Shown piece after piece: positions 5,988 through 25,609 of a stretch of DNA of 32,000 bases. The number at the start of each line of letters is the position of its first letter. Within the stretch, counting starts at the first letter, position 1. The DNA comes from Prochlorococcus sp. MIT 0801 (GTDB lineage Bacteria; Cyanobacteriota; Cyanobacteriia; PCC-6307; Cyanobiaceae), in assembly GCF_000757865.1 (NCBI RefSeq), contig NZ_CP007754.1, positions 1,590,001-1,622,000 of the forward strand, written 5' to 3'. The notes under the pieces are model-generated. The model was given only the letters and a program-made list of their open reading frames with translations. It was not told the DNA's origin and did no database searches. The position numbers were made by a program, and so were the translations under genes.

Positions 5988-6051
5988 TGTTCATTAAGAG
6001 AACTCAGTCAACTCAAAAACCAAATCTAAAGTTCAAGCACAACATTAATTA

Positions 6052-9000
6052 ATGACCAGCAGCGGTAAAATCAGAATTTATGAATTGTCCAAGGATTTAA
6101 ACCTTGACAATAAAGATGTGCTAGACGCAGCTCGAAAACTTGCAATAGCAGCAAAGAGCCACAGCAGCTCGATAAGCAGTCTTGAGGCAAATCAAATCAA
6201 AGATTTTCTAAAAACTAGCAATACTGAAAAAACCACTATTAAAGCCAGTAAGAAATTAGACAAACAAATTCTTTCTGTTAAAAAAAGTCCTGTCAAAACT
6301 CAAAAGAATCAGAAGAACGAATCTAAAAATACCCCCGATCAATCAGAACTTTCACAGGTAAAGTTAAATACCCCTTTAAAGCCAAGTCAAATTTTAGTTA
6401 CAAACCAAGGAGCTTCACAAGCAAATAACCAAAAAACTTTAAAAAATAAATTTCCTGCACAACAACAAATAACCGCACCCCCTAAACCAAATAAACCATT
6501 ACCTCCAAAGCCTAGAGAAGAAGTAAAACCAACTATTTCCAAGCCTTTAACTCAAACTGAGCGAAAGATTCCACATCCCGAACAAAAAAAAGATGAACAA
6601 TTCATCAACCAACCAAAAAGATCTGAATTAACTAAAAAACCAATTGGTCAACCACAGCAAATTAATCGTCAGGAACCAAAGAGAACATTAGCACCACCAA
6701 GCAGACCAAAAATAAATATTCAAGATAAAAAAAACTTACAACCTAATATCCAAAAAACAAAAACAAGAACGAATCAGGATGATATTTCTCCTCAGAAAGT
6801 TGGTCAAGGGAATATCCAAAGAAGTAAAAGTCAAAACAAACAGAATCCACCGTCGAGGACAACTCAGCCTCCAACCAAAGAAAATACTCTTGAACTTGTA
6901 GGTGCACCAATACGAAGAGAAAAGCCTGTAAATAAACCTCAGACGAACGAAGTAAGAACTAAGCCCGTAATGCCATTAAGGCCAGGCGCGCCAAAAAAAC
7001 CAACCTCTGCAAATCGTCAAGGATTATCAAATCGACCTAGTCCTAATAACAGAATGGGAGGGGCAGGTCGACCAGGTTCGCCAAATCGTCAAGGTCTCAA
7101 TCGAGGTGGAGTAGCAAATCGACCTACTCAAGGTCAAAACCGTCCAGGTGCTAATAATCGAGCTGGAGCGCCAGTGCGTACTGGGGCTCCAGCTCGAGGG
7201 GCTATACAAAACAGACCTGGAGTTCCTACCAGGTCCATTGGTGGGCCAAACCGTGCTAATAATCGACCAGGCGTTCCATCTGGTATGAGGAAACCAGTTG
7301 CACCTAGTGAATTGATGCAACTGCAAAAGCCACAAGCCAGACCAAAGGCTCCACAAAGAAAAACTGATTCTCCAACTAGCCCTAGGCCTAAAAGAGAAAA
7401 CTCAACTGGAGCAAGGCCACCGGTAAACAGGCCAACTCCAGCAGCTCCTAAAAAGCCAACTTATAGACCTGGTGGTACCGCTGCAGCACCAAGAAGGACA
7501 GGAAGACCTGATTGGGATGACAGTGCAAAGCTTGATGCTTTAAGAAATAAATCTCCTCAAAAACAGCGTCAAAAAGTCCATATTATTGGAGAAAATGATG
7601 ATGCACTAACTGCAGAAAGAGGTGGATTCGCAGGGGAACAACAAGCAGTTGTTCTCTCAGAGAGCTTGGCTCGACCATCAAAGCCCAAGGCTGGAAAGAG
7701 AAACAATGGGAAGCCTTTAACTGCTCTAAAAAAACGTAAAAAAGAAACAACTCGCCAAAGGCAAAGAAGACGTGCGATGGAATTAAGAGCAGCTAGAGAA
7801 GCAAAACTTGTAAGACCGGAAATGATTGTTGTCCCAGAAGACAATCTCACAGTTCAAGAGCTTGCTGACATGTTGAGTGTTGAAAGTTCCGAAATCATTA
7901 AATCATTATTTTTCAAAGGAATTACTGCAACCGTTACTCAATCACTAGATCTAGCGACAATCGAGACAGTTGCTGAGGAATTCGGAGTACCAGTTCTTCA
8001 AGATGATGTTGAAGAAGCAGCGAAGAAGACAGTTGAAATGATTGAGGAGGGAGATTTAAAATACTTAATTAGAAGACCTCCCGTCGTTACAGTGATGGGG
8101 CACGTTGATCATGGAAAAACATCTTTACTAGACGCTATTAGAAAAGCAAGAGTTGCAGCAGGGGAAGCTGGAGGAATTACTCAACACATCGGTGCTTATC
8201 AAATTGAGACTGAACATGATGGATCAACTAAAAAACTAACTTTTCTGGACACCCCTGGGCATGAAGCTTTTACAGCGATGAGAGCTAGAGGCACTAGGGT
8301 CACAGATGTAGCGATTTTAGTTGTAGCTGCTGATGATGGGGTTAGGCCTCAAACCCTAGAAGCTATTAGCCATGCAAGAGCAGCAAAAGTCCCCATTGTC
8401 GTAGCAATAAACAAAATTGATAAAGAAGGATCTTCTCCCGATCGTGTAAAACAAGAGTTATCAGAGCAGGATTTATTGTCAGAAGAATGGGGAGGAGACG
8501 TGGTAATGGTTCCCGTTAGTGCAATTAAAGGCGAAAACATCGATAAACTTTTAGAGATGGTTTTGCTCGTAACTGAAGTAGAGGATTTACAAGCAAACCC
8601 AGACAGATTGGCTAAAGGTACCGTTATCGAAGCCCACTTAGACAAAGCAAAAGGGCCTGTTGCAACATTATTAGTTCAAAATGGTACCCTCAAATCAGGA
8701 GATGTAGTCGCAGCTGGGCCAATACTTGGAAAAGTAAGAGCGATGGTGGATGAAAATGGATCCAGGATTAAAGAAGCAGGTCCATCTTTTCCAGTCGAAG
8801 CCCTTGGCTTTAGCGAAGTACCAACAGCTGGTGATGAGTTCGAAGTTTATCCAGATGAAAAAGCCGCGAGAGCAGTGGTTGGAGAACGAGCAAACGATGC
8901 TCGTGCAGCGCGACTTGCTCAGCAAATGGCTTCAAGACGAGTTTCACTTTCGTCGATGTCTGGGCAAGCAAGTGAGGGTGAACTTAAAGAATTAAATATT

Positions 9001-9654: not shown

Positions 9655-9924
9655 TTACTTATCTGCATCTTCTTTGCTTCTGTCTTTAAATAACAAAAAG
9701 CCGATAATTACTAATGCTGAAGTTTGGATTGCAAGGTCATTAATGGATACATTATCTCCCGCAATTACGTTGGTAACCATAATAAACAAGCCTAGGGCCG
9801 CTGACCCGAAGAGTGCAATCCAGACAGTTCTTCTTAATCCCCGATAAGGATTTTTAGTCTCCTTCAACAGTCGAGCTTTTAAATTTGGATCCAAATTGGA
9901 ATCAGGCTTATTAGAATTACTCAA
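9655..9924 (-). CDS. small membrane protein, DUF3493-like (family assigned from memory)
   Basis: The track ORF 9655-10020 runs into the tRNA, so only the part downstream of TTG 9924 (or TTG 9936) is plausible. It has two hydrophobic segments (VWIALFGSAALGLFIMV, SALVIIGFLLF) after a basic PYRGLRR motif. Confidence 0.55.
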   Translation of the reverse strand: MSNSNKPDSNLDPNLKARLLKETKNPYRGLRRTVWIALFGSAALGLFIMVTNVIAGDNVSINDLAIQTSALVIIGFLLFKDRSKEDADK

Positions 9925-9957
9925 AAATAAATTCAAAGATGATAACTTTATTCTAGT

Positions 9958-10029
9958 GCCGGTGTAGCTCAGGGGTAGAGCAACTGATTCGTAACCAGTA
10001 GGTCGGTGGTTCAATTCCACTCATCGGCA
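9958..10029 (+). tRNA. tRNA-Thr (anticodon CGU)
   Basis: Hand-folded cloverleaf. The acceptor stem GCCGGTG/CATCGGC has one G-T pair. D arm GCTC-AGGGGTA-GAGC. Anticodon loop TT-CGT-AA. T arm GGTGG-TTCAATT-CCACT. Discriminator A. CCA is not encoded. Confidence 0.9.
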
Positions 10030-10279
10030 TATAGTTATTAAAGGGCTTTAGAAGGAATTTGCTTCAGAGAAGGTGACCTTAATTAAAGTTTTTATTAAAA
10101 TTTTTCTTCTTTTATAAAAACTTATAGAAGACTAAGATCCTTTCTCAAAAATCAACTGTGTCCAATGATTCTAGTAAAAGCGTCTAGTTATTCTGTTCAT
10201 AACGAAAGTCATCTCGATATGTTAGGGTCTTAGCGCTGTAAATGTATGTCATCGGTTTTTACCCTTACAAATAAAGGTT

Positions 10280-11026
10280 ATGACTTCTACTGCTCCTAAT
10301 GAGAATGTTAAGGATAATTTAAAAGATAAAATTTCTTGCAAATTAGTCTCAGAAATAATTCGTGAACGTATAAAAGCCAATGGAGCTAGATTCCATGCAA
10401 ATGATAATATTTCTGATTTCATTCAGCCTGGAGAACTAGAAACTCTTGAGAGAGAAGTTGCAACCAGAGTTAGAGATTTGCTGAAAACTTTATTGATTGA
10501 TGTTGATAATGACCACAACACTCAAGAAACTGCAGAACGAGTTTCCAGAATGTATCTAAATGAAGTATTTAAAGGCAGATATCACCCTCAACCTAAGGTT
10601 ACTAATTTTCCTAACGATAGAAATTTAGATGAGATCTATACACTTGGACCAATCACTGTTCGATCAGCATGTTCTCATCACTTTGTTCCAATTCTTGGAG
10701 ATTGCTGGATAGGAATAAAACCTGGAGAAAAAGTTATTGGAATATCGAAGTTTGCAAGAGTAGCTGATTGGGTCTTTTCTAGGCCACATATTCAAGAAGA
10801 AGCTGTCATGATTCTTGCTGATGAAATAGAGAGATTATGTGAACCCAAAGGTCTTGCAATCCTTGTTAAAGCACAACATTATTGTATGAAATGGCGAGGA
10901 GTCAAAGAGCCTGAAACCAGCATGATCAACTCAATCGTTAGGGGTGATTTTCGCCATGATGCAAGTTTGAAGCAGGAGTTCTTTGAACTTGTTAAGCAAC
11001 AATCCAATTTCGGTAAAAATTACTAA
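10280..11026 (+). CDS. folE: GTP cyclohydrolase I (FolE type IA, zinc-dependent type)
   Basis: 248 aa with QETAERVSRMY, the Zn-ligand motif CSHHFVP and the downstream HYCMKWRGV Cys. Confidence 0.93.
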   Translation: MTSTAPNENVKDNLKDKISCKLVSEIIRERIKANGARFHANDNISDFIQPGELETLEREVATRVRDLLKTLLIDVDNDHNTQETAERVSRMYLNEVFKGRYHPQPKVTNFPNDRNLDEIYTLGPITVRSACSHHFVPILGDCWIGIKPGEKVIGISKFARVADWVFSRPHIQEEAVMILADEIERLCEPKGLAILVKAQHYCMKWRGVKEPETSMINSIVRGDFRHDASLKQEFFELVKQQSNFGKNY

Positions 11027-11284: not shown

Positions 11285-11305
11285 TGAAAATGGAAATCAT
11301 TTTCA
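11285..11305. promoter_or_regulatory. candidate Zur (Fur-family) operator upstream of the G3E-like/phosphoesterase operon
   Basis: Perfect 8-5-8 inverted repeat TGAAAATG-GAAAT-CATTTTCA, 41 nt upstream of ATG 11347 and just upstream of a TATATT -10-like hexamer (11316-11321). The stretch 11282-11303 matches 19458-19479 in the znuC/znuA intergenic region at 18/22 positions. Confidence 0.5.
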
Positions 11306-11346
11306 AAATGGATGTATATTCTTTTACGTTATTCCATATCTTTTGA

Positions 11347-12123
11347 ATGCGTCAGGTCTGGTTAATTTCAGGTCCTCCAGGTTGTGGTAAAACCAGTTGG
11401 ATCCTTGATAGATTAAAAAAACATAATAGTTCTTGTGGTTTTCTTCGCCTTTCAGGATTCTCAGAGAACTCTTTGGAACAGGCAAACTCTAATGAGATTG
11501 ATTATGTATTTCTTAAAGATCAAATACCACAGCTAATAGATTTATCTAAATCCTCTGATCAACTCTGTACTGATCAAGATGGTTTGTTGTTATTCATTGA
11601 GCTTCCACAGTTTTATCTTCCTAAGGAATCTGGATTGGCTGGCATTGATCGACGTGTTATTAACCAGCTTGAGAATTTAAAACTTATACCTGATAAATAT
11701 CTCCATTTTGGCCGTGACAATGAATTGCCAATTGTTGACACATTAAACTTTGAAAAGATCGAATCCTTAAGTATCAACCTCAATGAAACTGTTTGGGATC
11801 CGCCAAGCCTAAATACTTTTTGGTTTGAATTAGTTAATGGTGCATATGGAGATGTATATCGAGCAAAAGCCCTGATGAATATCATTGATGGACGATTTAT
11901 GTTGTTCAACTGGATTGTTAGTCGAAATGGTTCGCAGTTTTTGCAACTAAATAATTTTGCGCCACCCAAAGGGAGACCTCAGCGAATATCGCAACTAATT
12001 ATTCAAGGAAGAAATCTTGATTTTGTAAGCATTAAATCTACTGTCAATCTTTGTCTTGTAAATGATGCTGTATTGCAGTTCCATCAAGCTTCTCTTGGCA
12101 ATCAACAATTAGCAGCAACTTAA
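11347..12123 (+). CDS. degenerate G3E/COG0523-like P-loop protein (Walker A present, no CxCC or NKxD)
   Basis: 258 aa. N-terminal GPPGCGKTSW Walker A, a FIELP segment at the Walker-B position, and a C-terminal part resembling a CobW_C domain (..FWFELVNGAYGDVYRAKALMNI..ISQLIIQGRNLD). The family assignment rests on motif inspection only. Confidence 0.65.
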   Translation: MRQVWLISGPPGCGKTSWILDRLKKHNSSCGFLRLSGFSENSLEQANSNEIDYVFLKDQIPQLIDLSKSSDQLCTDQDGLLLFIELPQFYLPKESGLAGIDRRVINQLENLKLIPDKYLHFGRDNELPIVDTLNFEKIESLSINLNETVWDPPSLNTFWFELVNGAYGDVYRAKALMNIIDGRFMLFNWIVSRNGSQFLQLNNFAPPKGRPQRISQLIIQGRNLDFVSIKSTVNLCLVNDAVLQFHQASLGNQQLAAT

Positions 12124-12135
12124 TAAAGTTTACTT

Positions 12136-12951
12136 ATGAAACAAGCAGTTATCTCATGTTTACATGCCAACCTCCCTGCTGTAGAGGCTGTACTTAACGA
12201 CATCGATCGTCAAGGAATTGATATCATTACTTGCCTTGGTGACTTGGTGGGCTATGGACCGCATCCAAATGAGGTTGTGGAGTTAATAAGAGAGCGTAAT
12301 ATTGCCACCTGTCAGGGTTGTTGGGACGAAGATGTTGTCGATGGACTTGATGCCTGTGATTGTAGCTATCCCTCCCAACTTGCCGAAAGACGTGGACACG
12401 AAGCTCACAAATGGACTACTACAAAGTTGTCGAATAAAAATAAGAGTTTTCTAGCTAGCCTTCCAAAATCTATACGTAGAAATAAATTGCTTTTTGTTCA
12501 TGGCAGCCCTAATAGTCAACATGAATATCTCCTTCCAGATATGGATGCATTTGCAGCGTTAGAAAGAGTAGAAATGGCTGGAGCTGAAACTTTATTTTGT
12601 GGTCATACACACTTACCTTATCTTCGTGAATTAGGAAATGGAACAATTCGAGTAAGTCTTAAAAACAGTCCTAAGAATAAATTAGAAAATAAAGAAATGA
12701 ATTTACCTATGAGAAGGATAGTCAATGCAGGGTCTGTTGGCGAACCGCGTCATGGAGGGATTAATGCTACCTATGTGATTTACGACGATGAAACAAACAA
12801 TATTGATATAAAAGAAGTTTCATATGATATTAATCGAACCTGCAAAGCTATCATAGAAGTTGGGCTACCTCATATATTTGCATGGCGCCTGAGTCATGGC
12901 TTTGAATTTGCAGAACTGGCCGAGGATGCTAGTCATGTGTGTGAAAGATGA
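12136..12951 (+). CDS. metallophosphoesterase (YfcE/MJ0936-like) with Cys substitutions at canonical metal-ligand positions
   Basis: 271 aa. Motif II GDLVGYG, motif IV FVHGSP and motif V CGHTHLPY are intact. Motif I reads SCLHAN (Asp replaced by Cys). Motif III reads GCWDED instead of GNHD/GNCD. There is an extra DACDC pair. Confidence 0.85.
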   Translation: MKQAVISCLHANLPAVEAVLNDIDRQGIDIITCLGDLVGYGPHPNEVVELIRERNIATCQGCWDEDVVDGLDACDCSYPSQLAERRGHEAHKWTTTKLSNKNKSFLASLPKSIRRNKLLFVHGSPNSQHEYLLPDMDAFAALERVEMAGAETLFCGHTHLPYLRELGNGTIRVSLKNSPKNKLENKEMNLPMRRIVNAGSVGEPRHGGINATYVIYDDETNNIDIKEVSYDINRTCKAIIEVGLPHIFAWRLSHGFEFAELAEDASHVCER

Positions 12952-13661
12952 TTGAACGCTGGGCATTAATAAGTGGTTTAAAGGGCGACCTTGAGACTTA
13001 TGCACTTATTCAAAAGAATTTAAAAAAAATTCAAGGAGATATAAAATTATTTGTTTTGGGTGACATGGTAGGAGCAGCAAGAAATTGCGATGCATTGATC
13101 GACCGTCTAATCAATCCTCTCCCTGGCGATTTCAAGCCCCAATGTATTTATGGTTGGTGGGAAGATCAGCTACTTGCAGAACGGGGTTATCGTGGAGAAC
13201 AAAAGGCAGATGCTTTAAGACTAAATGAAGGAGAAAGCGTAGTTAAAGCTCTTGTAAATGCGGTTGATCCGTATTATTTAAATTGGTTGGCTTCTCTTGA
13301 ATTTGGATTTGTCGAATTGGATTGCGGATTGATTCATGGAAGTTCTAAAGACGTTGGAGATTCTCTAACAAAGGACACACCTCCTCTTATCCTTTTGGAC
13401 CGTCTTACTCGACTTGGTGTGAATAGATTGTTTACAGCAAGAAGTGCTCAACAATTTCATCTTGAATTGACTGACGCTGTAGTTAACTCATACGTCAAAG
13501 ATTTAGGTGGTAATCGTAAGCAAGAACAGAGAATGCCTAAGAGAGGAGTTATAGGAATTGGTGCTGGCGCTTATTACACTCTTTATGATGTTGGAAGTGA
13601 TAAAACTCACTTTCTTAATGTTCTTGATCAGCCTAAATCAACTGCAAGGGGATTTGGGTAA
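12948..13661 (+). CDS. metallophosphoesterase-like paralogue, apparently catalytically degenerate
   Basis: 237 aa. Its start overlaps the upstream stop (ATGA). It keeps GDMVG (motif II) and LIHGSS (motif IV). Motif I is ISGLKGD (no Asp or His), motif III is YGWWED, and no GHxH motif V is present. Confidence 0.7.
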   Translation: MIERWALISGLKGDLETYALIQKNLKKIQGDIKLFVLGDMVGAARNCDALIDRLINPLPGDFKPQCIYGWWEDQLLAERGYRGEQKADALRLNEGESVVKALVNAVDPYYLNWLASLEFGFVELDCGLIHGSSKDVGDSLTKDTPPLILLDRLTRLGVNRLFTARSAQQFHLELTDAVVNSYVKDLGGNRKQEQRMPKRGVIGIGAGAYYTLYDVGSDKTHFLNVLDQPKSTARGFG

Positions 13662-14319: not shown

Positions 14320-15518
14320 TCAGAACTCGAAAGTGGTTTTCACCAAAGCTCCATTAACGTCCTCTTTACCATCTTGTTCAATAACAAAAATAGCTGGAGT
14401 AACTGTGACGCTATCGTTCACCGTAAAATCATAAAAAGCTTCCCAAGCCAAAGGATCATCATAACCACTGTCATCTCTATGAGTTTCGGCTGTTCCAATA
14501 CCAAATCCAAACTTATTTCCCTCAATAAACGCATCATTCCATAGGAAGCCAACAGACCATGTATTGCCATCCTCCACCTTATTCATTGCAGTATCAGGAT
14601 TATCCTCGTTTTCAGGATTCTTCCAACCAATACCAGCACTCAAGCTGTAGTCGTCTCCGAATTGATAGCTACCACTAATTCCATAAGACGAGTAATCATT
14701 CACATCAGGAGAATTATCAGTATTCCCGTTATCCGCTTGGGTATAGGCCGCTGCAAGAGTAAATTTATCATCAACCCATGCCAACTGAGTCGTTATGTGA
14801 TCTTTACCTTCATCAGTTAAAAAACCAATCGAAGAATTTGATGCGTCTTCTGAAACGAAGAGAGCAGAAGCAACTAATTTGTCATGAGACCAAGTAATAC
14901 CAGCACCCGCTCCCATTTTTTTGGAATAAGTATCATTGGCCCCTGCCTGGTTTAGTACAAATAAAACTCCATCGCTTGGGTAATCACTTGGCCACACACC
15001 AAGTAAATCATCTTGACGAAGCTTGGGACCAAAAGTTACTTGAATATCATCTCCCAAGGAAACTGATAATAAGCCTTGTGAAGTTCCAACGAATCACTAC
15101 TACTAAAAGCAGTATCTAATCTTGCCTCACCCATCATTCCGAAGGGTTCCATCATGCCAAAATTACCTATCCGAACAGCAGTTTTAAGCATGTCTTGACC
15201 TGTGAAACTGGTCATAAACATTAACTTTGTATCGTAGTGAAAAACTGTCCCATCCTTGTCCTCAGAAGTAGACATTCCACCCATTCCACCCATTCCACCC
15301 ATTCCACCCATTCCAGAATCACTTACGCCATCTATTCCACCCAAAACAAAAGTTGTTTTTCCCATAAACATAGTTGAAGGATATGAATCTCCCATATTCA
15401 TGTGACCACCATGGTGATCATGATGACCTTTGTTCTTTTCACTTCCTGCTTCAACAGCCATTGGAGCCATGAAACCTAAGGCAGTAGGGATTGAAAGTAA
15501 TTGAGCAAAGAGCCTCAT
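14320..15518 (-). pseudogene. outer-membrane porin (cyanobacterial OprB-like beta-barrel, no SLH domain seen) split by a 1-nt frameshift
   Basis: ORFs 15036-15518 and 14320-15057 are the N- and C-terminal parts of one protein. The N part has a signal peptide, HHDHHGGH and (GMG)n. The C part is Gly/Asp/aromatic-rich and ends ..TTFEF, a terminal Phe typical of OM barrels. Adding one T to the minus-strand cagtttccTTggg (about 15056-15060) would give ..YYQFPLGDDIQVTFGPK... Confidence 0.75.
15273..15315 (-). repeat. 9-nt tandem repeat (CATTCCACC, ~4.8 copies) encoding (GMG)n in the porin
   Basis: Direct reading: cattccacc occurs 4 times followed by cattcca. It is in frame and encodes GMGGMGGMGGMGGM on the minus strand. 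Confidence 0.9.
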
Positions 15519-15818: not shown

Positions 15819-16076
15819 ATGGACAAACTTAAGCCTATTCTCTCCACAATTATTCTTTCTTTATCATTTTCACTAATAGGATGTTCAGATAATAGTCAAA
15901 CACAAGGTACTCCCTCTCTTTTTGAGACAAAAATAGAAGCCGAAAAAGCAGCCAAGGATTTCAATTGCACTGGAGCTCATAAAATGGGTGACAAATGGAT
16001 GCCTTGTAAAAGTCATTCTGCTCATGAAGATAAAGAGAATAACAACTCAAGAAATGAACATCACCATCATCACTAG
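15819..16076 (+). CDS. small lipoprotein with a Cys/His/Met 'WMPC' mini-domain (DUF3721-like, from memory) and a C-terminal His5 tail
   Basis: 85 aa. Lipobox SLIGC. Motif FNCTGAHKMGDKWMPCKSH. Ends NEHHHHH. Confidence 0.75.
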   Translation: MDKLKPILSTIILSLSFSLIGCSDNSQTQGTPSLFETKIEAEKAAKDFNCTGAHKMGDKWMPCKSHSAHEDKENNNSRNEHHHHH

Positions 16077-16091
16077 ATTTTCGAACAATAA

Positions 16092-16535
16092 ATGACAACC
16101 AACAATAGTACTAATCAAAAAGAGATCGAAGGTCCTTCGCATTGTGGAAGCAAACCAAAAAAAATTGCATTTGGCATAGCACCACTTGGATTCATTTCCA
16201 TTGGAATTGTTCCCATGGGGATTGTTAGCATTGGAATTGTTCCCATGGGTGTCGTTTCTATTGGCGCTGTAGCCATGGGAGTATTGAATGCATCAATAAT
16301 CGGTATGGGAATATTTTCTGCCGGAATAACAACCATGGGTCTAAAGGTATGGAGTCCAGAAAACAATGCTCTTCAGGAGTCAATCAATCGTTCTAATTCT
16401 TCGTCTTCAAAAAATATATATGCATATCCAACCAAAGCTCAGGCAGAGATCGAAGCCAAAAAGATCGGATGCAATGGTGTCCATAAGATGGGTAAATTAT
16501 GGATGCCTTGTGCAATCCATATAAACCCTAACTAA
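16092..16535 (+). CDS. membrane protein with six tandem Gly/Met decapeptide repeats plus a C-terminal WMPC (DUF3721-like) mini-domain
   Basis: 147 aa. Residues ~27-86 read FGIAPLGFIS IGIVPMGIVS IGIVPMGVVS IGAVAMGVLN ASIIGMGIFS AGITTMGLKV. The C-terminus IGCNGVHKMGKLWMPCAIH is paralogous to the upstream gene. It lies 15 nt downstream of the previous stop. Confidence 0.7.
   Translation: MTTNNSTNQKEIEGPSHCGSKPKKIAFGIAPLGFISIGIVPMGIVSIGIVPMGVVSIGAVAMGVLNASIIGMGIFSAGITTMGLKVWSPENNALQESINRSNSSSSKNIYAYPTKAQAEIEAKKIGCNGVHKMGKLWMPCAIHINPN
16199..16249 (+). repeat. exact 21-nt direct repeat with a 30-nt period inside the decapeptide-repeat region
   Basis: cattggaattgttcccatggg occurs at 16199-16219 and again at 16229-16249. 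Confidence 0.9.
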
Positions 16536-18232: not shown

Positions 18233-18285
18233 TAAGCAAATGATTTAGTATGGTCAGTTAGACAGATCAAATTAAGATCTTGCTA

Positions 18286-18687
18286 ATGAATACAAGCAAG
18301 CCTGACATAACTAAGAGACAGCAACAACTTCTCAATGAACTCAAGAGATGTCCTGATGAGTTGAGTGGACAAGAACTGCATAGAAAATTTCATAATGGTC
18401 AAAAGGCAATGGGTCTGACGACTGTATATAGGAACTTGCAAGTGTTAGTAAAGCAAGGTTTGATCCGCTCGAGACACCTCCCTAACGGCGAGGTCCTTTA
18501 TGCCCCAGTTGAAAGAGATATTCATCATTTAACTTGCGTAAGCTGCGGGGAAACTACTCGATTGCAGGGATGCCCCGTCAAAACAATGCACATACCCCAG
18601 AAAGCCTCTAAAAAATTTGAGCTGTTGTTTCATACTCTTGAATACTTTGGCCTCTGCCAAAATTGTTCCCAAGGATTGAATGCTTGA
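18286..18687 (+). CDS. zur: Fur-family metalloregulator, Zur-like
   Basis: Winged-helix region (GLTTVYRNLQVLVKQGLI), then HHLTCVSCG and LCQNCSQ CxxC pairs typical of Fur/Zur. Divergent from znuB. The track ORF begins at TTG 18280; ATG 18286 is preferred. Confidence 0.88.
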   Translation: MNTSKPDITKRQQQLLNELKRCPDELSGQELHRKFHNGQKAMGLTTVYRNLQVLVKQGLIRSRHLPNGEVLYAPVERDIHHLTCVSCGETTRLQGCPVKTMHIPQKASKKFELLFHTLEYFGLCQNCSQGLNA

Positions 18688-19460: not shown

Positions 19461-19479
19461 TGAAAATGATTATCGTTTT
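19461..19479. promoter_or_regulatory. probable Zur box in the znuC/znuA divergent promoter region
   Basis: TGAAAATGATTATCGTTTT contains an 8-1-8 near-palindrome, AAAATGAT-T-ATCGTTTT, with 7/8 arm complementarity. It lies 21 nt upstream of the znuA ATG and 48 nt upstream of the znuC start. Fur-family operators are typically AT-rich palindromes at this location. Confidence 0.6.
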
Positions 19480-21074: not shown

Positions 21075-21392
21075 ATGTTTCCAACTAAAGGGTTTAACGC
21101 CTATAGACAACACTGGGAAGATCAGGCAAGTTTTATGGATAAAGCGCCATGGGATAGAGATAAAATCTTAAAACTTACTATCTCAACTGACTTCGATGAC
21201 AATTTAAAAGAACTTCAATTTTCAAATCATTCGCTTAAGAAAGAAAATGGAAAAAATACAGTAAGATTAAAAGTTCCATACAATTATTTTGAGCTAGATG
21301 ATTTTGAATCAAAGTCCCTAGATTTATTGGGAATACAAGAGAATTGGCTAACTGATATTTCTTTTGACAACTCTCATTGTTCACATTATTAG
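21075..21392 (+). CDS. hypothetical protein (105 aa) between znuA and the COG0523 gene
   Basis: ORF only, with no recognised domain or signal peptide. It ends ..NSHCSHY. It fits the gap between neighbouring genes on the same strand. Confidence 0.4.
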   Translation: MFPTKGFNAYRQHWEDQASFMDKAPWDRDKILKLTISTDFDDNLKELQFSNHSLKKENGKNTVRLKVPYNYFELDDFESKSLDLLGIQENWLTDISFDNSHCSHY

Positions 21393-21400
21393 TTAAAGAA

Positions 21401-22783
21401 ATGAGCATTAAGCAAAAAGTACCGGTTACCATATTGACTGGTTTCCTAGGATCTGGAAAAACTACTCTACTTAATCGAATCTTGAGCGAAGAACACGGTA
21501 AAAAAATAGCTGTTATTGAAAATGAATATGGTGAAGTTGGTATTGATCAAGGATTAGTCATCAATGCTGATGAAGAGGTCTTCGAGATGTCGAATGGTTG
21601 CATTTGCTGCACCGTTCGGGGTGATCTTATTCGTGTACTTGGAAACCTCATGAAGAGGCGAGACAAATTTGACTATGTATTAGTTGAAACTACTGGCCTT
21701 GCTGATCCTGGTCCTGTCGCTCAGACATTCTTTATGGACGATGAAATCCGTGAGGAGTTTTCACTTGATGGAATAGTCACACTTGTTGATGCAGCCCATA
21801 TAGAGCAACAACTTGGTCGAAGTGATGAGAGTTCGGAGCAAGTTGCCTTTGCTGACGTCCTTGTCCTAAATAAAACCGATCTAGTTTCAGATGAATCACT
21901 CGACAACTTAGAATCACGGCTACGCGATATGAATCGTATGGCTCGTGTCATACGCAGTAAACAAGCAGACGTCTCAATTGATACTGTGCTAAATCTAAGT
22001 GCTTTTGATTTAGATCAAGTACTTCAGCGTCGTCCAACTTTTCTTGAACCAGAATACCCATTTGAGTGGACAGGTGTTTTTTCACTTGAAAAAGGTCGCT
22101 ATGAACTTACGCTCGAAGAAGGTCCAGACCCCACAATGTCTCTCGTCCAGTTATTAGATCAAGGTAAAGACGAGACAGCTCTTAACACAGGTGCTGAATC
22201 ATGCGTGAGACTCTACGCAGAACAAGAACAACTTATAAATCCAGGGGATTTGGTTCCAATCGGCAAGCATGTGAGCCTTCAACTTCAATCCGAAGGGACT
22301 AAGTCCTTCTTCATAGATGTTGATAAGGCAAGGGATATAGGTCTATTCACGCAACATACAGCTGAAGAATTTAATATGAAATTAACGAAAGTAAATACTC
22401 CTTCTACAGACCATATAGATAATGATCAGAACATCTCTACAATTTCTCCAATAGCTGAGAGGGTTTGGGTAGCTGAACACGAACATGATGACGAAGTAGG
22501 TTCATTCGCTATCGAGCGAGACGGTAACGTAGATCCAGAAAAACTCAATAGATGGCTAAGTCGACTTTTGTCTGAGAAAGGTGTGGATATATTTCGCACT
22601 AAAGGTTTCATTAGTTATGCGGGTGAATCTAAGCGAATAGTTTTTCAAGGAGTACACATGCTCTTCACAGCACAACCTGATAAAGAATGGGGCAATGAAC
22701 CTCGCCGTAACCAACTCGTCTTTATCGGTAGAAATCTTGATGAAGTAGAAATGAGAAAGGAGTTTGATAAATGTCTGGTATAG
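21401..22783 (+). CDS. COG0523 (CobW/YjiA/ZigA-type) G3E metallochaperone GTPase with an inserted ~105-aa domain
   Basis: GFLGSGKTTLLN (Walker A), ENEYGE, the GCICCTV metal motif, VETTGLADP, LNKTD, and a C-terminal CobW_C-like region (..RTKGFISYAG..IVFQGVH..). Between the G domain and the C-domain lies an insert starting at FEWTGVF, followed by AEHEHDDE. ATG 21401 is preferred over the track start at 21377. Confidence 0.9.
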   Translation: MSIKQKVPVTILTGFLGSGKTTLLNRILSEEHGKKIAVIENEYGEVGIDQGLVINADEEVFEMSNGCICCTVRGDLIRVLGNLMKRRDKFDYVLVETTGLADPGPVAQTFFMDDEIREEFSLDGIVTLVDAAHIEQQLGRSDESSEQVAFADVLVLNKTDLVSDESLDNLESRLRDMNRMARVIRSKQADVSIDTVLNLSAFDLDQVLQRRPTFLEPEYPFEWTGVFSLEKGRYELTLEEGPDPTMSLVQLLDQGKDETALNTGAESCVRLYAEQEQLINPGDLVPIGKHVSLQLQSEGTKSFFIDVDKARDIGLFTQHTAEEFNMKLTKVNTPSTDHIDNDQNISTISPIAERVWVAEHEHDDEVGSFAIERDGNVDPEKLNRWLSRLLSEKGVDIFRTKGFISYAGESKRIVFQGVHMLFTAQPDKEWGNEPRRNQLVFIGRNLDEVEMRKEFDKCLV

Positions 22784-23844
22784 AAGCATTTAGTCCAAAG
22801 GGAATGCTTCATGAAAGTTGGTCTGCTCAAGCTAGCGACTACGCGATTGTCTGCGGCTGGGCACTACAAGGTAAAACTTTTTTAGTAGGTGACGTCGCTG
22901 GTGGGCTTTATGCATTTGAGGGAATATCTGGAAAGCTCATTTGGCAAATAAAAGACATACATAAAGGCGGCTTACTCGCAATGTCTATACATCCAAATGG
23001 AAAGACTTTTGCAACTGCTGGCCAAGATGGACATGTAAATATATGGGAAAGCCAAGAGGGTACGTCAACTAAAACTATAGAACTTGGGAAAGGTTGGGTT
23101 GAGCACATCAAGTGGTCCCCAGACGGAAAATTTTTAGCTGTAGTTTTTACTAAATACGTCTATGTTTTTGATGATCAAGGTCAAGAACATTGGCGATCAG
23201 AGGAGCATCCCAGCACTGTCAGCGCGATTGCTTGGTCTAATTCAAATGAATTAGCAACAGCATGCTATGGCCAAGTAACTTTTTTTGATGTCGTAAACGA
23301 CAAGATCAATCAAAAGTTGGAATGGAGAGGCTCACTAGTATCTATGGTGCTTAGTCCAGATGGTGACATAGTGGCATGCGGCAGCCAAGATAATTCTGTT
23401 CATTTCTGGCGTCGTTCAACTGATCAAGATTCAGAGATGACAGGCTACCCAGGTAAACCAAGCCACCTAGCTTTTGATCAAACCGGCACAGTCCTTGCTA
23501 CTGGGGGTAGTGATCGAGTGACGGTTTGGAGTTTTCAAGGCGATGGTCCTGAGGGCACTGTACCAGGAGAGTTAATGCTTCATACGGAACCCATTTCATG
23601 CCTTTCTTTCTCACATAGCGGGATGCTTTTAGCTTCTGGCGCGAGAGATGGTTCAGTTTTTTCTTGGTTTCTCCAAAAAGATGGTCAGGGTGATCCAGTT
23701 GGTGGTGCATTTGCAGGTGACCTTGTAAGCCAAATCGCTTGGCATCCTGATGACACTGCCTTGGCTGCAATAAATGCAAACGGAGGAATTACGGTTTGGG
23801 AGTTTAAGGTTCGGACGAAAACCTCACCTCAAGGAATCGGATAA
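22771..23844 (+). CDS. WD40-repeat (beta-propeller) protein translationally coupled to the COG0523 gene
   Basis: 357 aa with repeated WD-type units (DGHVNIWE, DNSVHFWR, DRVTVWSF, DGSVFSWF, GGITVWEF). Its ATG lies 13 nt inside the 3' end of the COG0523 ORF. Confidence 0.85.
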   Translation: MSGIEAFSPKGMLHESWSAQASDYAIVCGWALQGKTFLVGDVAGGLYAFEGISGKLIWQIKDIHKGGLLAMSIHPNGKTFATAGQDGHVNIWESQEGTSTKTIELGKGWVEHIKWSPDGKFLAVVFTKYVYVFDDQGQEHWRSEEHPSTVSAIAWSNSNELATACYGQVTFFDVVNDKINQKLEWRGSLVSMVLSPDGDIVACGSQDNSVHFWRRSTDQDSEMTGYPGKPSHLAFDQTGTVLATGGSDRVTVWSFQGDGPEGTVPGELMLHTEPISCLSFSHSGMLLASGARDGSVFSWFLQKDGQGDPVGGAFAGDLVSQIAWHPDDTALAAINANGGITVWEFKVRTKTSPQGIG

Positions 23845-25197: not shown

Positions 25198-25468
25198 TTA
25201 ATAGAAAAATATTCTTACACAGTTATTTTTCAAGATATAGACAAGATTGTTCCATCTCTCCATAGAGTCCATAAGCAATAATTTTTACCCAATCAGACTT
25301 TATGCTTGAAAAGACAAAAAGTTTCTGATCTAAATTGATAATAATTTTTGAAGAAACTTCAACAGATTGAGAATGAATTGTGTATTATCTACAAACGTTC
25401 AGCTCTATCCGAGTCGCAGTTAGATTCAAGCCATGGAACGGGGACTTGAACAATGACAATTTTTTCTA

Positions 25469-25609
25469 ATGGCTGAACTAACTTACAGAGGACTTAAGTA
25501 CTCTCAAAATAAATCTGCTAAAAGCTCTCAAGAATTGCACTTGCAATATTGTGGTCATGAAATCATGAGTAAGAGAATCCATGAAGCCATGAAAGCTGAA
25601 ATGGGTTGA
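25469..25609 (+). CDS. DUF4278-like small protein (46 aa)
   Basis: Hand-translated as MAELTYRGLKYSQNKSAKSSQELHLQYCGHEIMSKRIHEAMKAEMG. The N-terminal M.L.YRG..Y is the signature I recall for cyanobacterial DUF4278 peptides. Confidence 0.5.
   Translation: MAELTYRGLKYSQNKSAKSSQELHLQYCGHEIMSKRIHEAMKAEMG

Follow-up and report, generated by a model that had tools for sequence, protein, structure and literature searches.

A predicted Zur-regulated operon encoding a COG0523-like protein and two metallophosphoesterase-fold proteins, one with a cysteine-substituted metal site, in Prochlorococcus

The operon and its three proteins

A cluster of three genes was analysed in a 32,000-nt stretch of DNA from Prochlorococcus sp. 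MIT 0801 (NZ_CP007754.1, 1,590,001-1,622,000), referred to as the window. The first, second and third genes (P1, P2 and P3) encode a degenerate COG0523/G3E-like protein, a metallophosphoesterase (MPE) assigned by sequence to the Car1 lineage, and an MPE-fold paralogue of P2 that is predicted to be catalytically dead, respectively (Table 1). The genes are tightly packed. P1 and P2 are separated by 12 nt (12124-12135), and the P2-P3 junction reads AGATGATTG, in which the stop and start codons overlap as ATGA. The P1 protein is 98% identical to that of Prochlorococcus sp. MIT 0916, and an Rfam scan found no riboswitch near the operon. An earlier reading of this DNA (the original prediction) had described the same packing, and its observations, including every motif, were confirmed in full. 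Its interpretation held for the operon, the ligand substitutions in P2, the pseudo-enzyme, the G3E-like P1 and the operator, but is doubtful for P2 as an alternative-metal phosphoesterase and for P1 as a maturation factor, and it passed over the significance of a DACDC pair in P2.

P2 is placed in the calcineurin-like metallophosphoesterase superfamily by both sequence and fold. It matches the Pfam families Metallophos_2 (PF12850; 8e-20, 71.8 bits, cut-off 27) and Metallophos (PF00149; 2e-9, 38.7 bits, cut-off 21.5). Its closest solved relative in a pairwise hidden Markov model (HMM) alignment is 3rqz (5e-27), and a Foldseek search with its AlphaFold2 (AF2) model (pLDDT 92.7) returned 3rqz (1.6e-21) and SapH (2.5e-16), with Vps29 also among the matches. 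The canonical motif set (D-x-H, GD, GNH[DE], H and GHxH) is incomplete in P2, where motif I is C-x-H and motif III is G-C-W-D; GD, H122 and GHTH are retained. Motifs II, IV and V are kept as GDLVGYG, VHGSP and GHTH, as had been noted originally, and the replacement of the motif I Asp and the motif III Asn by Cys was upheld by the 3rqz HMM alignment and by a 132-sequence alignment. A register shift was ruled out as the cause of the two Cys residues by these alignments. The substitutions are considered real and not an alignment artefact because ISCLHANL and ISDVHANL, and likewise GCWDED and GNHDWA, pair directly between P2 and 3rqz.

The cysteine features of P2 comprise C8 (motif I), C62 followed by W63 (motif III), a C74-x-C76 pair and C269 in the tail. 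Residues C8, H10, C33, D36, C59, C62, W63, C74, C76, H159, R205 and C269 are invariant in 121 picocyanobacterial sequences, among which D64, H122 and H157 are near-invariant. Five of the seven canonical ligands are retained in P2, as is R205. This Arg belongs to an oxyanion-binding loop (GSVGEPRHG), and both the loop and the whole active-site framework are conserved in all clades at a stringency like that of enzymes. In standard MPE geometry, one metal position is formed by C8, H10, D36 and H159 and the other by D36, C62, H122 and H157 (P2 numbering), and each position would gain one thiolate in P2. With such thiolates, Zn, Co, Cd or Ni would be preferred to Mn or Mg; the affinity for the former metals would rise, but the need for a metal would remain.

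Thiolates in a bimetallic hydrolase site have precedents in PhoD (Fe-Cys, MPE-like fold) and in the B1 metallo-beta-lactamases (Asp-Cys-His zinc site). These enzymes are unrelated to P2 in sequence, contain one Cys compared with two, and lack the adjacent redox CxC pair and the chaperone-like partners of P2. Small cytosolic MPEs of the SapH, 3RQZ and PF1291 type (PF12850) share the fold and overall sequence of P2, but those of them with intact sites have Asp/Asn ligands and GNHD, and neither Cys-substituted ligands nor a CxC pair or Cys tail is found in any of them.

The lineage of P2 was investigated by searching 1.84 billion cluster representatives and aligning P2 with 131 full-length matches. 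The alignment contains 89 sequences in a canonical state (DxH and GNH, without CxC), 22 in a Car1-like state (DxH, GNY and a CGC pair usually at residues 74/76) and six, including P2, in a Cys-clade state (CxH, GCW and a CxC pair); the other relatives are scattered variants. The D-to-C and N-to-C ligand changes always occur together in this alignment, and solely on a CxC background. P2 shows approximately 40-46% identity to the Car1-like representatives, and a neighbour-joining tree built without the diagnostic columns places the Cys clade inside or beside the Car1-like group. As judged from these comparisons, P2 is a member of a small clade within or beside that group. At the position of the motif III general-acid His, P2 has Trp (W63) and Car1-like proteins have Tyr. 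A further feature of the Cys clade is a C-terminal extension of 15-20 residues ending in Cys (CxC in non-cyanobacterial members, VCER in P2). Neither Car1-like nor canonical relatives have this extension, and the AF2 model of P2 shows it as disordered. Cys-clade representatives contain 7-11 Cys each, compared with a mean of approximately 4-5 in their relatives.

The As(V) reductase Car1 comes from Rufibacter tibetensis. PMC12124457 (2025), which cites Shen et al. 2024 (Mol Microbiol 122:201) for Car1, describes an MPE in ars operons with approximately 40% identity to this enzyme; the MPE also carries Cys74 and Cys76, given in that paper as essential to the reductase activity of Car1. Car1 and P2 belong to the same MPE subfamily, lack the motif III His and carry the Cys pair after motif III, in P2 at the same numbering as in most Car1-like representatives. 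C74/C76 of P2 is the predicted counterpart of the Car1 catalytic pair; the DACDC pair, originally described as an extra, is therefore present but not incidental. Car1-like proteins contain an intact DxH and GNYD site and are found in ars or pst operons, whereas P2 has CxH and GCWD, a Cys tail, a Zur box and the partners P1 and P3. The three Car1-like genes that were placed on contigs lie in ArsD-ArsA-ArsR-Acr3, MIP-ArsR and pstSCAB-phoU contexts, and no counterparts of P1 and P3 were found in these three loci. No ars-operon neighbours were detected in the Cys-clade loci examined for gene content, while 160 loci of the larger sets were screened for metal-homeostasis genes only. Inheritance of the MPE pair from ars operons was considered and rejected, as the two genes that follow the Car1-like gene of locus L094 are no MPE homologues. 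In locus L093, a Car1-like MPE gene (6001-6762; DxH/GNYD/CGC) is located between pstB and phoU in a pstSCAB-MPE-phoU operon, which suggests arsenate handling coupled to phosphate uptake.

The triad is co-conserved across cyanobacteria, a point that the original prediction had listed as a check. A P1 scan with one genome per species identified 168 genomes with a P1 relative. The counts given here are from the best 80 of these 168, all of which are Prochlorococcus, Synechococcus or Cyanobium. P1, P2 and P3 occur in the same order and with tight spacing in all 80 loci, two of which are cut by a contig end before P3, and the triad is complete in 78 of 78 complete picocyanobacterial loci. A metagenome scan keyed to Cys-clade peptides yielded two further sets, group B (59 loci, P2 identity 55-63%) and group A (21 loci, P2 identity 39-46%). 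Among loci with room for the gene, P1 is present in 48/49 and P3 in 43/45 of group B. Group B probably represents other cyanobacteria, because its P1 and P3 most resemble the copies of Leptolyngbya PCC 7376, which also carries the triad. Group A contains P1 in 0/16 and P3 in 0/13 loci and appears to be non-cyanobacterial. In one genome the module occurs twice on a single contig (JAESGG010000015.1; loci L143 and L133), once as a complete triad and once as P1 and P2 alone; in the latter copy, the variable hairpin insert is missing from P2.

P3 aligns with P2 over its full length in BLASTP (E 5e-8) and in a profile-profile comparison by hhalign (99.5% probability, E 3e-22, 211 columns); a Pfam search of P3 gave no match. 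Of the metal-site residues, only D39 (the bridging Asp of motif II) and H130 (the His of motif IV) are kept. SGLKG, GWWE and ARS-Q stand in place of motifs I, III and V, respectively, and these replacements are invariant in 114 sequences. C66 and C126 are also invariant and C47 is nearly so. P3 is a true MPE paralogue of P2 that, to judge from its residues, is catalytically dead. It is regarded as a constrained pseudo-enzyme and not as a decaying copy because the replacement residues are invariant, and the original assignment of P3 as a pseudo-enzyme is retained. Vps29 and the B-subunits of replicative DNA polymerases are inactive MPE-fold scaffolds. Like P3, they keep the fold and have lost the metal ligands, which implies a protein-binding role; the P3 gene differs in that it adjoins and overlaps the gene of a putatively active paralogue in a bacterial operon.

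P1 contains a Walker A motif (GPPGCGKT) in which G9, C13, G14 and K15 are invariant in 118 sequences, and a Walker-B-like IELPQ in which E85 is invariant and the Gly of ExxG is absent. The sequence FGRD, with a nearly invariant D124, stands at the presumed place of NKxD, as located from the secondary structure of the model. P1 is approximately 100 residues shorter than COG0523 proteins and lacks NKxD, the ExxG Gly, the His-rich stretch and the CxCC metal-binding motif, which is present as GCICC in the neighbouring canonical COG0523 proteins. Its C-terminal third matches the CobW_C domain of the COG0523 protein encoded in the window (BLASTP E 5e-6), and many P1 homologues, which are named G3E GTPases at source, are annotated with PF07683. 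The Leptolyngbya copy scores 22.8 bits against the CobW_C cut-off of 22, whereas P1 of the window is under the Pfam threshold; in hhalign, P1 aligns with COG0523 in the C-terminal domain only (E 2.9e-4, 41% probability). With an AF2 model of pLDDT 88, a Foldseek search against PDB returned, below 1e-3, only entries of Escherichia coli YjiA (4e-7, probability 1.0). The global TM-score to YjiA is only 0.32, which indicates that either the domain orientation or the N-terminal domain differs. The assignment of P1 as a degenerate G3E/COG0523-like protein is supported by BLASTP, the PF07683 homologues and the YjiA fold matches.

The C-terminal domain is the most conserved part of P1. In locus L146 (15-2311), a contig of the triad lineage, a full COG0523 gene is followed by a 115-aa mini-P1 consisting of CobW_C only and then by P2; the contig continues for another 800 nt, in which there is no P3. 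The survival of the C-terminal domain alone points to it as the essential part of P1. P1 had been proposed as a dedicated maturation factor; the COG0523 likeness agrees with this, but the missing CxCC motif and the reduction to a C-terminal domain in one lineage do not, and the features of P1 resemble those of an adaptor rather than of a maturation factor that carries metal. The COG0523/G3E proteins E. coli YjiA, B. subtilis ZagA, vertebrate ZNG1 and Nha3 combine P-loop and CobW_C-like domains as P1 does, but P1 is shorter, has lost key motifs and is reducible to the C-terminal domain. Nha3 is a COG0523-type protein for nitrile hydratase, a client with a Cys-ligated metal site, as is presumed for P2. 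The gene immediately preceding the operon and its Zur box is folE, which encodes a zinc-type GTP cyclohydrolase I and recalls the B. subtilis ZagA-FolE link. A functional link between folE and P1 by this analogy was rejected, as the adjacency is found only in the nearest relative, L013.

Operator and metal-gene neighbourhoods

A Zur-type operator, which is an imperfect palindrome, lies upstream of P1 and shows two mismatches to AAAAYGATWATCRTTTT, a pattern derived from the znuC/znuA box of the window. The same motif occurs at Zur sites that have been published for the znuC<>znuA-COG0523-WD40 region of Prochlorococcus. The operator overlaps a promoter-like element with 9/12 consensus matches, which is weak alone; the TATA(T/C) block downstream of the box, similar to a -10 element, is kept in other Prochlorococcus loci. 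Overlap of box and promoter is the arrangement expected of a member of the Zur regulon. Within the window alone, operator enrichment is not significant (three sites compared with 1.2 expected), and phylogenetic footprinting was therefore used. Boxes with up to two mismatches to AAAAYGATWATCRTTTT at -54 to -62 from the P1 ATG were found in 66 of 70 Prochlorococcus loci (30-44% GC), compared with 7 of 8523 background windows. Eight other such boxes occur in the Prochlorococcus loci, three of them between znuC and znuA and five by no identified gene. The Zur-like operator of the original prediction is thereby substantiated, and the operon would be under Zur control in vivo. The third box in the window, which is intergenic and located before a glutamine riboswitch, may be a chance match.

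Similar boxes were identified outside Prochlorococcus. The COG0523-P1-P2-P3 clusters of Cyanobium and some Synechococcus have a GC-rich version of the palindrome approximately 50 nt before the COG0523 gene. Loci L083 and L087 contain such a palindrome between zur and COG0523-WD40, and Leptolyngbya PCC 7376 has a box approximately 100 nt upstream of P1. In group B, a box was found in 21/39 loci, compared with 45/1663 background windows.

The operon of the window is located 4 kb from a znuB-zur-znuC-znuA-COG0523-WD40 cluster. The position of zur within the znuABC cluster of Prochlorococcus has been described (Barnett 2012). The canonical COG0523 protein of this cluster is a possible metal donor. 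In eight loci of Cyanobium and some Synechococcus, P1 starts within a canonical COG0523 gene, the product of which has GCICC, NKxD and a stretch rich in His. Such COG0523 genes are translationally coupled to P1 in several genomes. The triad of locus L010 lies beside a metallothionein gene and two COG0523 genes, and a COG0523 gene is present within 6 kb in 24/59 loci of group B.

Metal genes also adjoin the Cys-clade MPE in group A, where a short FeoB-like gene is its neighbour in 12/21 loci. The MPE gene and this GTPase/permease gene are directly adjacent and on the same strand on at least 10 independent contigs, and COG0523-WD40 pairs and Fur/Zur-like genes are often found divergently next door to the MPE. 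The short FeoB-like proteins (L004:6346-7992, L005:8869-10521, L009:4441-5709 and L097-L114) are approximately 380-590 aa in length with MMR_HSR1/FeoB_N and Gate domains, and their genes beside Cys-clade MPEs may encode an unrecognised metal importer. The link between the MPE clade, COG0523 and Fur-controlled transport is taken to be older than the cyanobacterial triad, because the same partners appear in the group A neighbourhoods. The connection with metal homeostasis that had been proposed from the window thus extends to distant relatives with FeoB-like, COG0523-WD40 and Fur-family neighbours. A related zinc-linked arrangement may exist in Crocosphaera watsonii, where a metallophosphoesterase gene and two unknown genes are predicted to share an operon with porphobilinogen synthase (PMC9009326).

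Proposed function and alternative explanations

The operon is best explained as a zinc-starvation-induced, Zur-repressed metalloenzyme module that is serviced by COG0523-type proteins and in which the chemistry of P2 is thiol-dependent; the chances that this explanation is correct are judged to be even. The operon would be repressed by Zur and de-repressed upon zinc starvation. P2 would be the working subunit, with an MPE fold of the Car1 lineage whose binuclear site has been rebuilt with one thiolate per metal; the redox-competent C74-x-C76 pair and a flexible Cys tail at the C-terminus would lie beside this site. P3 would most likely pair with P2 as a scaffold. P1 would act as a COG0523-derived adaptor, the CobW_C-like domain of which docks on P2 and bridges it to a metal-carrying COG0523 GTPase; the latter would be encoded immediately upstream in Cyanobium and some Synechococcus and in the zinc island of the window. 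P2 would bind an oxyanion or metal and carry out on it a reduction or transfer like that of Car1, or a metal hand-off, and not ordinary phosphoester hydrolysis. Gene content, residue substitutions, homologies, co-conservation, the conserved operator and the metal-gene neighbourhoods are observed, whereas Zur control in vivo, the P2-P3 and P1-P2 contacts, the thiolate ligation and the chemistry are predictions. Thiol-dependent chemistry is favoured on three grounds: Trp stands in place of the general-acid His, the oxyanion-binding Arg loop has been preserved, and the redox pair of Car1 persists together with a newly gained, mobile Cys tail. Signs that catalysis is retained are seen in the coupling of the ligand changes on a CxC background and in the invariance or near-invariance of the other ligands and R205.

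Several observations weigh against this explanation. The N-terminal domain of P1 has no significant match to the COG0523 profile, and the comparison with COG0523 HMMs proposed in the original prediction therefore succeeded for the C-terminal domain only. The clustering of Cys residues around the metal site of P2 is deduced from homology. Most high-light Prochlorococcus loci contain no zinc genes within 10 kb of the triad, and both genomes of marine Synechococcus that were sampled, MIT S9451 and UW140 (one contig of which is represented by L011 as well as L088), have no box near P1. The Zur regulon determined by RNA-seq in Synechococcus WH8102, a strain that may lack the triad, comprises eight genes, and no such operon was reported in it. 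Fur and Zur boxes are similar, and control of the operon by iron is also conceivable.

In an alternative along the lines of the original prediction, P2 and P3 would be an ordinary phosphoesterase, for example an Ap4A/nucleotide hydrolase like SapH, that has been adapted to a non-zinc metal and replaces a zinc enzyme under zinc shortage, with P1 as its metal insertase. P2 is clearly an MPE, its nearest characterised structural relative is the Ap4A hydrolase/phosphodiesterase SapH, its R205 and five of seven ligands are kept, and the Zur operator with COG0523 neighbours fits the classic pattern of a low-zinc paralogue and its chaperone. Nevertheless, this explanation is thought unlikely. The thiolates favour Zn, Co, Cd or Ni and do not imply zinc sparing, no canonical zinc-dependent counterpart was identified, P1 has no CxCC metal site, and the clade keeps the redox pair of Car1, an enzyme that reportedly has only limited phosphatase activity. 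The MPE fold and the Cys substitutions stand, but because the motif III His is changed to Trp and a Cys tail has been gained, P2 more likely performs thiol-based chemistry than works as an efficient phosphoesterase with another metal.

P2 could also be a non-catalytic, thiolate-rich cytosolic acceptor or buffer that receives metal from importers (ZnuABC, FeoB-like) and passes it to COG0523 by means of the Cys tail as a transfer arm. Such a role would suit the high Cys content of the clade with its disordered tail, the operonic association with FeoB-like genes on at least 10 independent contigs, the adjoining COG0523-WD40 and Fur-family genes and the metallothionein gene of L010. It is considered quite unlikely, however: the GSVGEPRHG loop with R205 and the active-site framework are under enzyme-like conservation, and a plain buffer needs neither a dead paralogue nor an NTPase-like adaptor. 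The possibility that P2 is a plain cyanobacterial arsenate reductase of the Car1 type, with an incidental zinc association, is rated as improbable. Arsenate stress is real in phosphate-poor oceans, and P2 has CxC at 74/76 as in Car1 and groups with Car1-like proteins of ars operons or pstSCAB-phoU. Against this, two Car1 metal ligands are replaced, Tyr is changed to Trp, a Cys tail is gained, the Zur operator is conserved along with the COG0523 partners, nothing equivalent to P1 and P3 was found in the three Car1-like loci examined, and ars neighbours are absent from the Cys-clade loci examined for gene content, the larger sets having been covered by the metal-gene screen only.

The metalloenzyme module serviced by COG0523-type proteins combines known kinds of components, namely a Car1-type MPE and a COG0523 protein with its client. 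Literature searches for a metallophosphoesterase together with Zur, COG0523 or Prochlorococcus gave nothing on this operon, none of the papers searched links COG0523 to a metallophosphoesterase, and the zinc-homeostasis genome surveys consulted for comparison do not list it. COG0523 proteins are induced by zinc starvation in all kingdoms. To our knowledge, very few of their clients have been recognised, namely FolE for ZagA and MetAP1 for ZNG1. The module provides a concrete, genetically linked candidate partner for a family with mostly unknown targets, and is of interest to specialists in metal homeostasis. The Cys-clade MPE is conserved from Prochlorococcus to non-cyanobacterial lineages and would mark a second evolutionary change within the MPE fold: hydrolases first gave rise to the Car1 reductase, and from this lineage came a site with two Cys substitutions. 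A near-universal Prochlorococcus operon would thereby join the predicted Zur regulon, which bears on the life of the most abundant phototroph at picomolar zinc. A broader and tentative proposal, which we consider less likely than not, is that the Cys-clade MPEs form a new class of COG0523-dependent metalloprotein. As dedicated and widely conserved bacterial clients or partners of zinc-type COG0523 chaperones, they would use the rebuilt binuclear centre, the CxC pair and the Cys tail for redox or metal-transfer chemistry by which metal is acquired or re-allocated in zinc starvation, coupled to ZnuABC in cyanobacteria and to the short FeoB-like importer in other bacteria.

Other features of the window

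The coordinates of the operon, its control elements and the neighbouring features are summarized in Table 1.

Table 1. Features of the 32,000-nt window of Prochlorococcus sp. MIT 0801
Feature	Position	Strand	Length	Description
P1	11347-12123	+	258 aa	Degenerate COG0523/G3E-like protein
P2	12136-12951	+	271 aa	MPE, putative Car1 lineage
P3	12948-13661	+	237 aa	MPE-fold P2 paralogue, predicted catalytically dead
Zur-type operator	11287-11303	.		AAAATGGAAATCATTTT; imperfect palindrome, arms TGAAAATG / CATTTTCA
Promoter-like element	11291-11320	+		TGGAAA-18-TATATT
Reference Zur box	19463-19479	.		AAAATGATTATCGTTTT; between znuC and znuA; corresponds to published znuC<>znuA Zur sites
Third box	25332-25348	+		AAATTGATAATAATTTT; within two mismatches of the Zur pattern
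Fur-family gene, predicted Zur	18280-18687	+		Pfam FUR 1e-16; in znuABC cluster, flanked by ABC-3, ABC_tran and ZnuA genes
Canonical COG0523 gene	21377-22783	+		cobW and CobW_C domains; downstream of znuA
WD40 gene	22771-23844	+		After COG0523 gene, downstream of znuA
folE	10280-11026	+		Zinc-type GTP cyclohydrolase I
Two DUF3721 proteins	15819-16535	+		Between operon and znuB
Two overlapping open reading frames (ORFs)	14320-15518	-	245 aa, 160 aa	Together like one OprB-like porin
Glutamine-II riboswitch	25393-25450	+		RF01704, 66.8 bits
ORF	25469-25609		46 aa	Just downstream of riboswitch
tRNA-Thr (CGT)	9957-10030	+		Overlaps 5' end of the ORF at 9655-10020
ORF	9655-10020	-		DUF3493/LPA1-like

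One of the two DUF3721 proteins ends in HHHHH and the other contains GLTT repeats; Synechococcus UW140 and MIT S9451 also have genes of this family close to the triad and znuB. The N-terminal part of the porin-like pair contains a His-rich HHDHHGGH and GMGGM repeats, and the pair may be a frameshift or a split gene. This pair of ORFs also occurs in the MIT 0916 locus and, in several loci of Synechococcus, close to the triad. The DUF3493/LPA1-like gene, the called 5' end of which is overlapped by the tRNA gene, probably starts further in.

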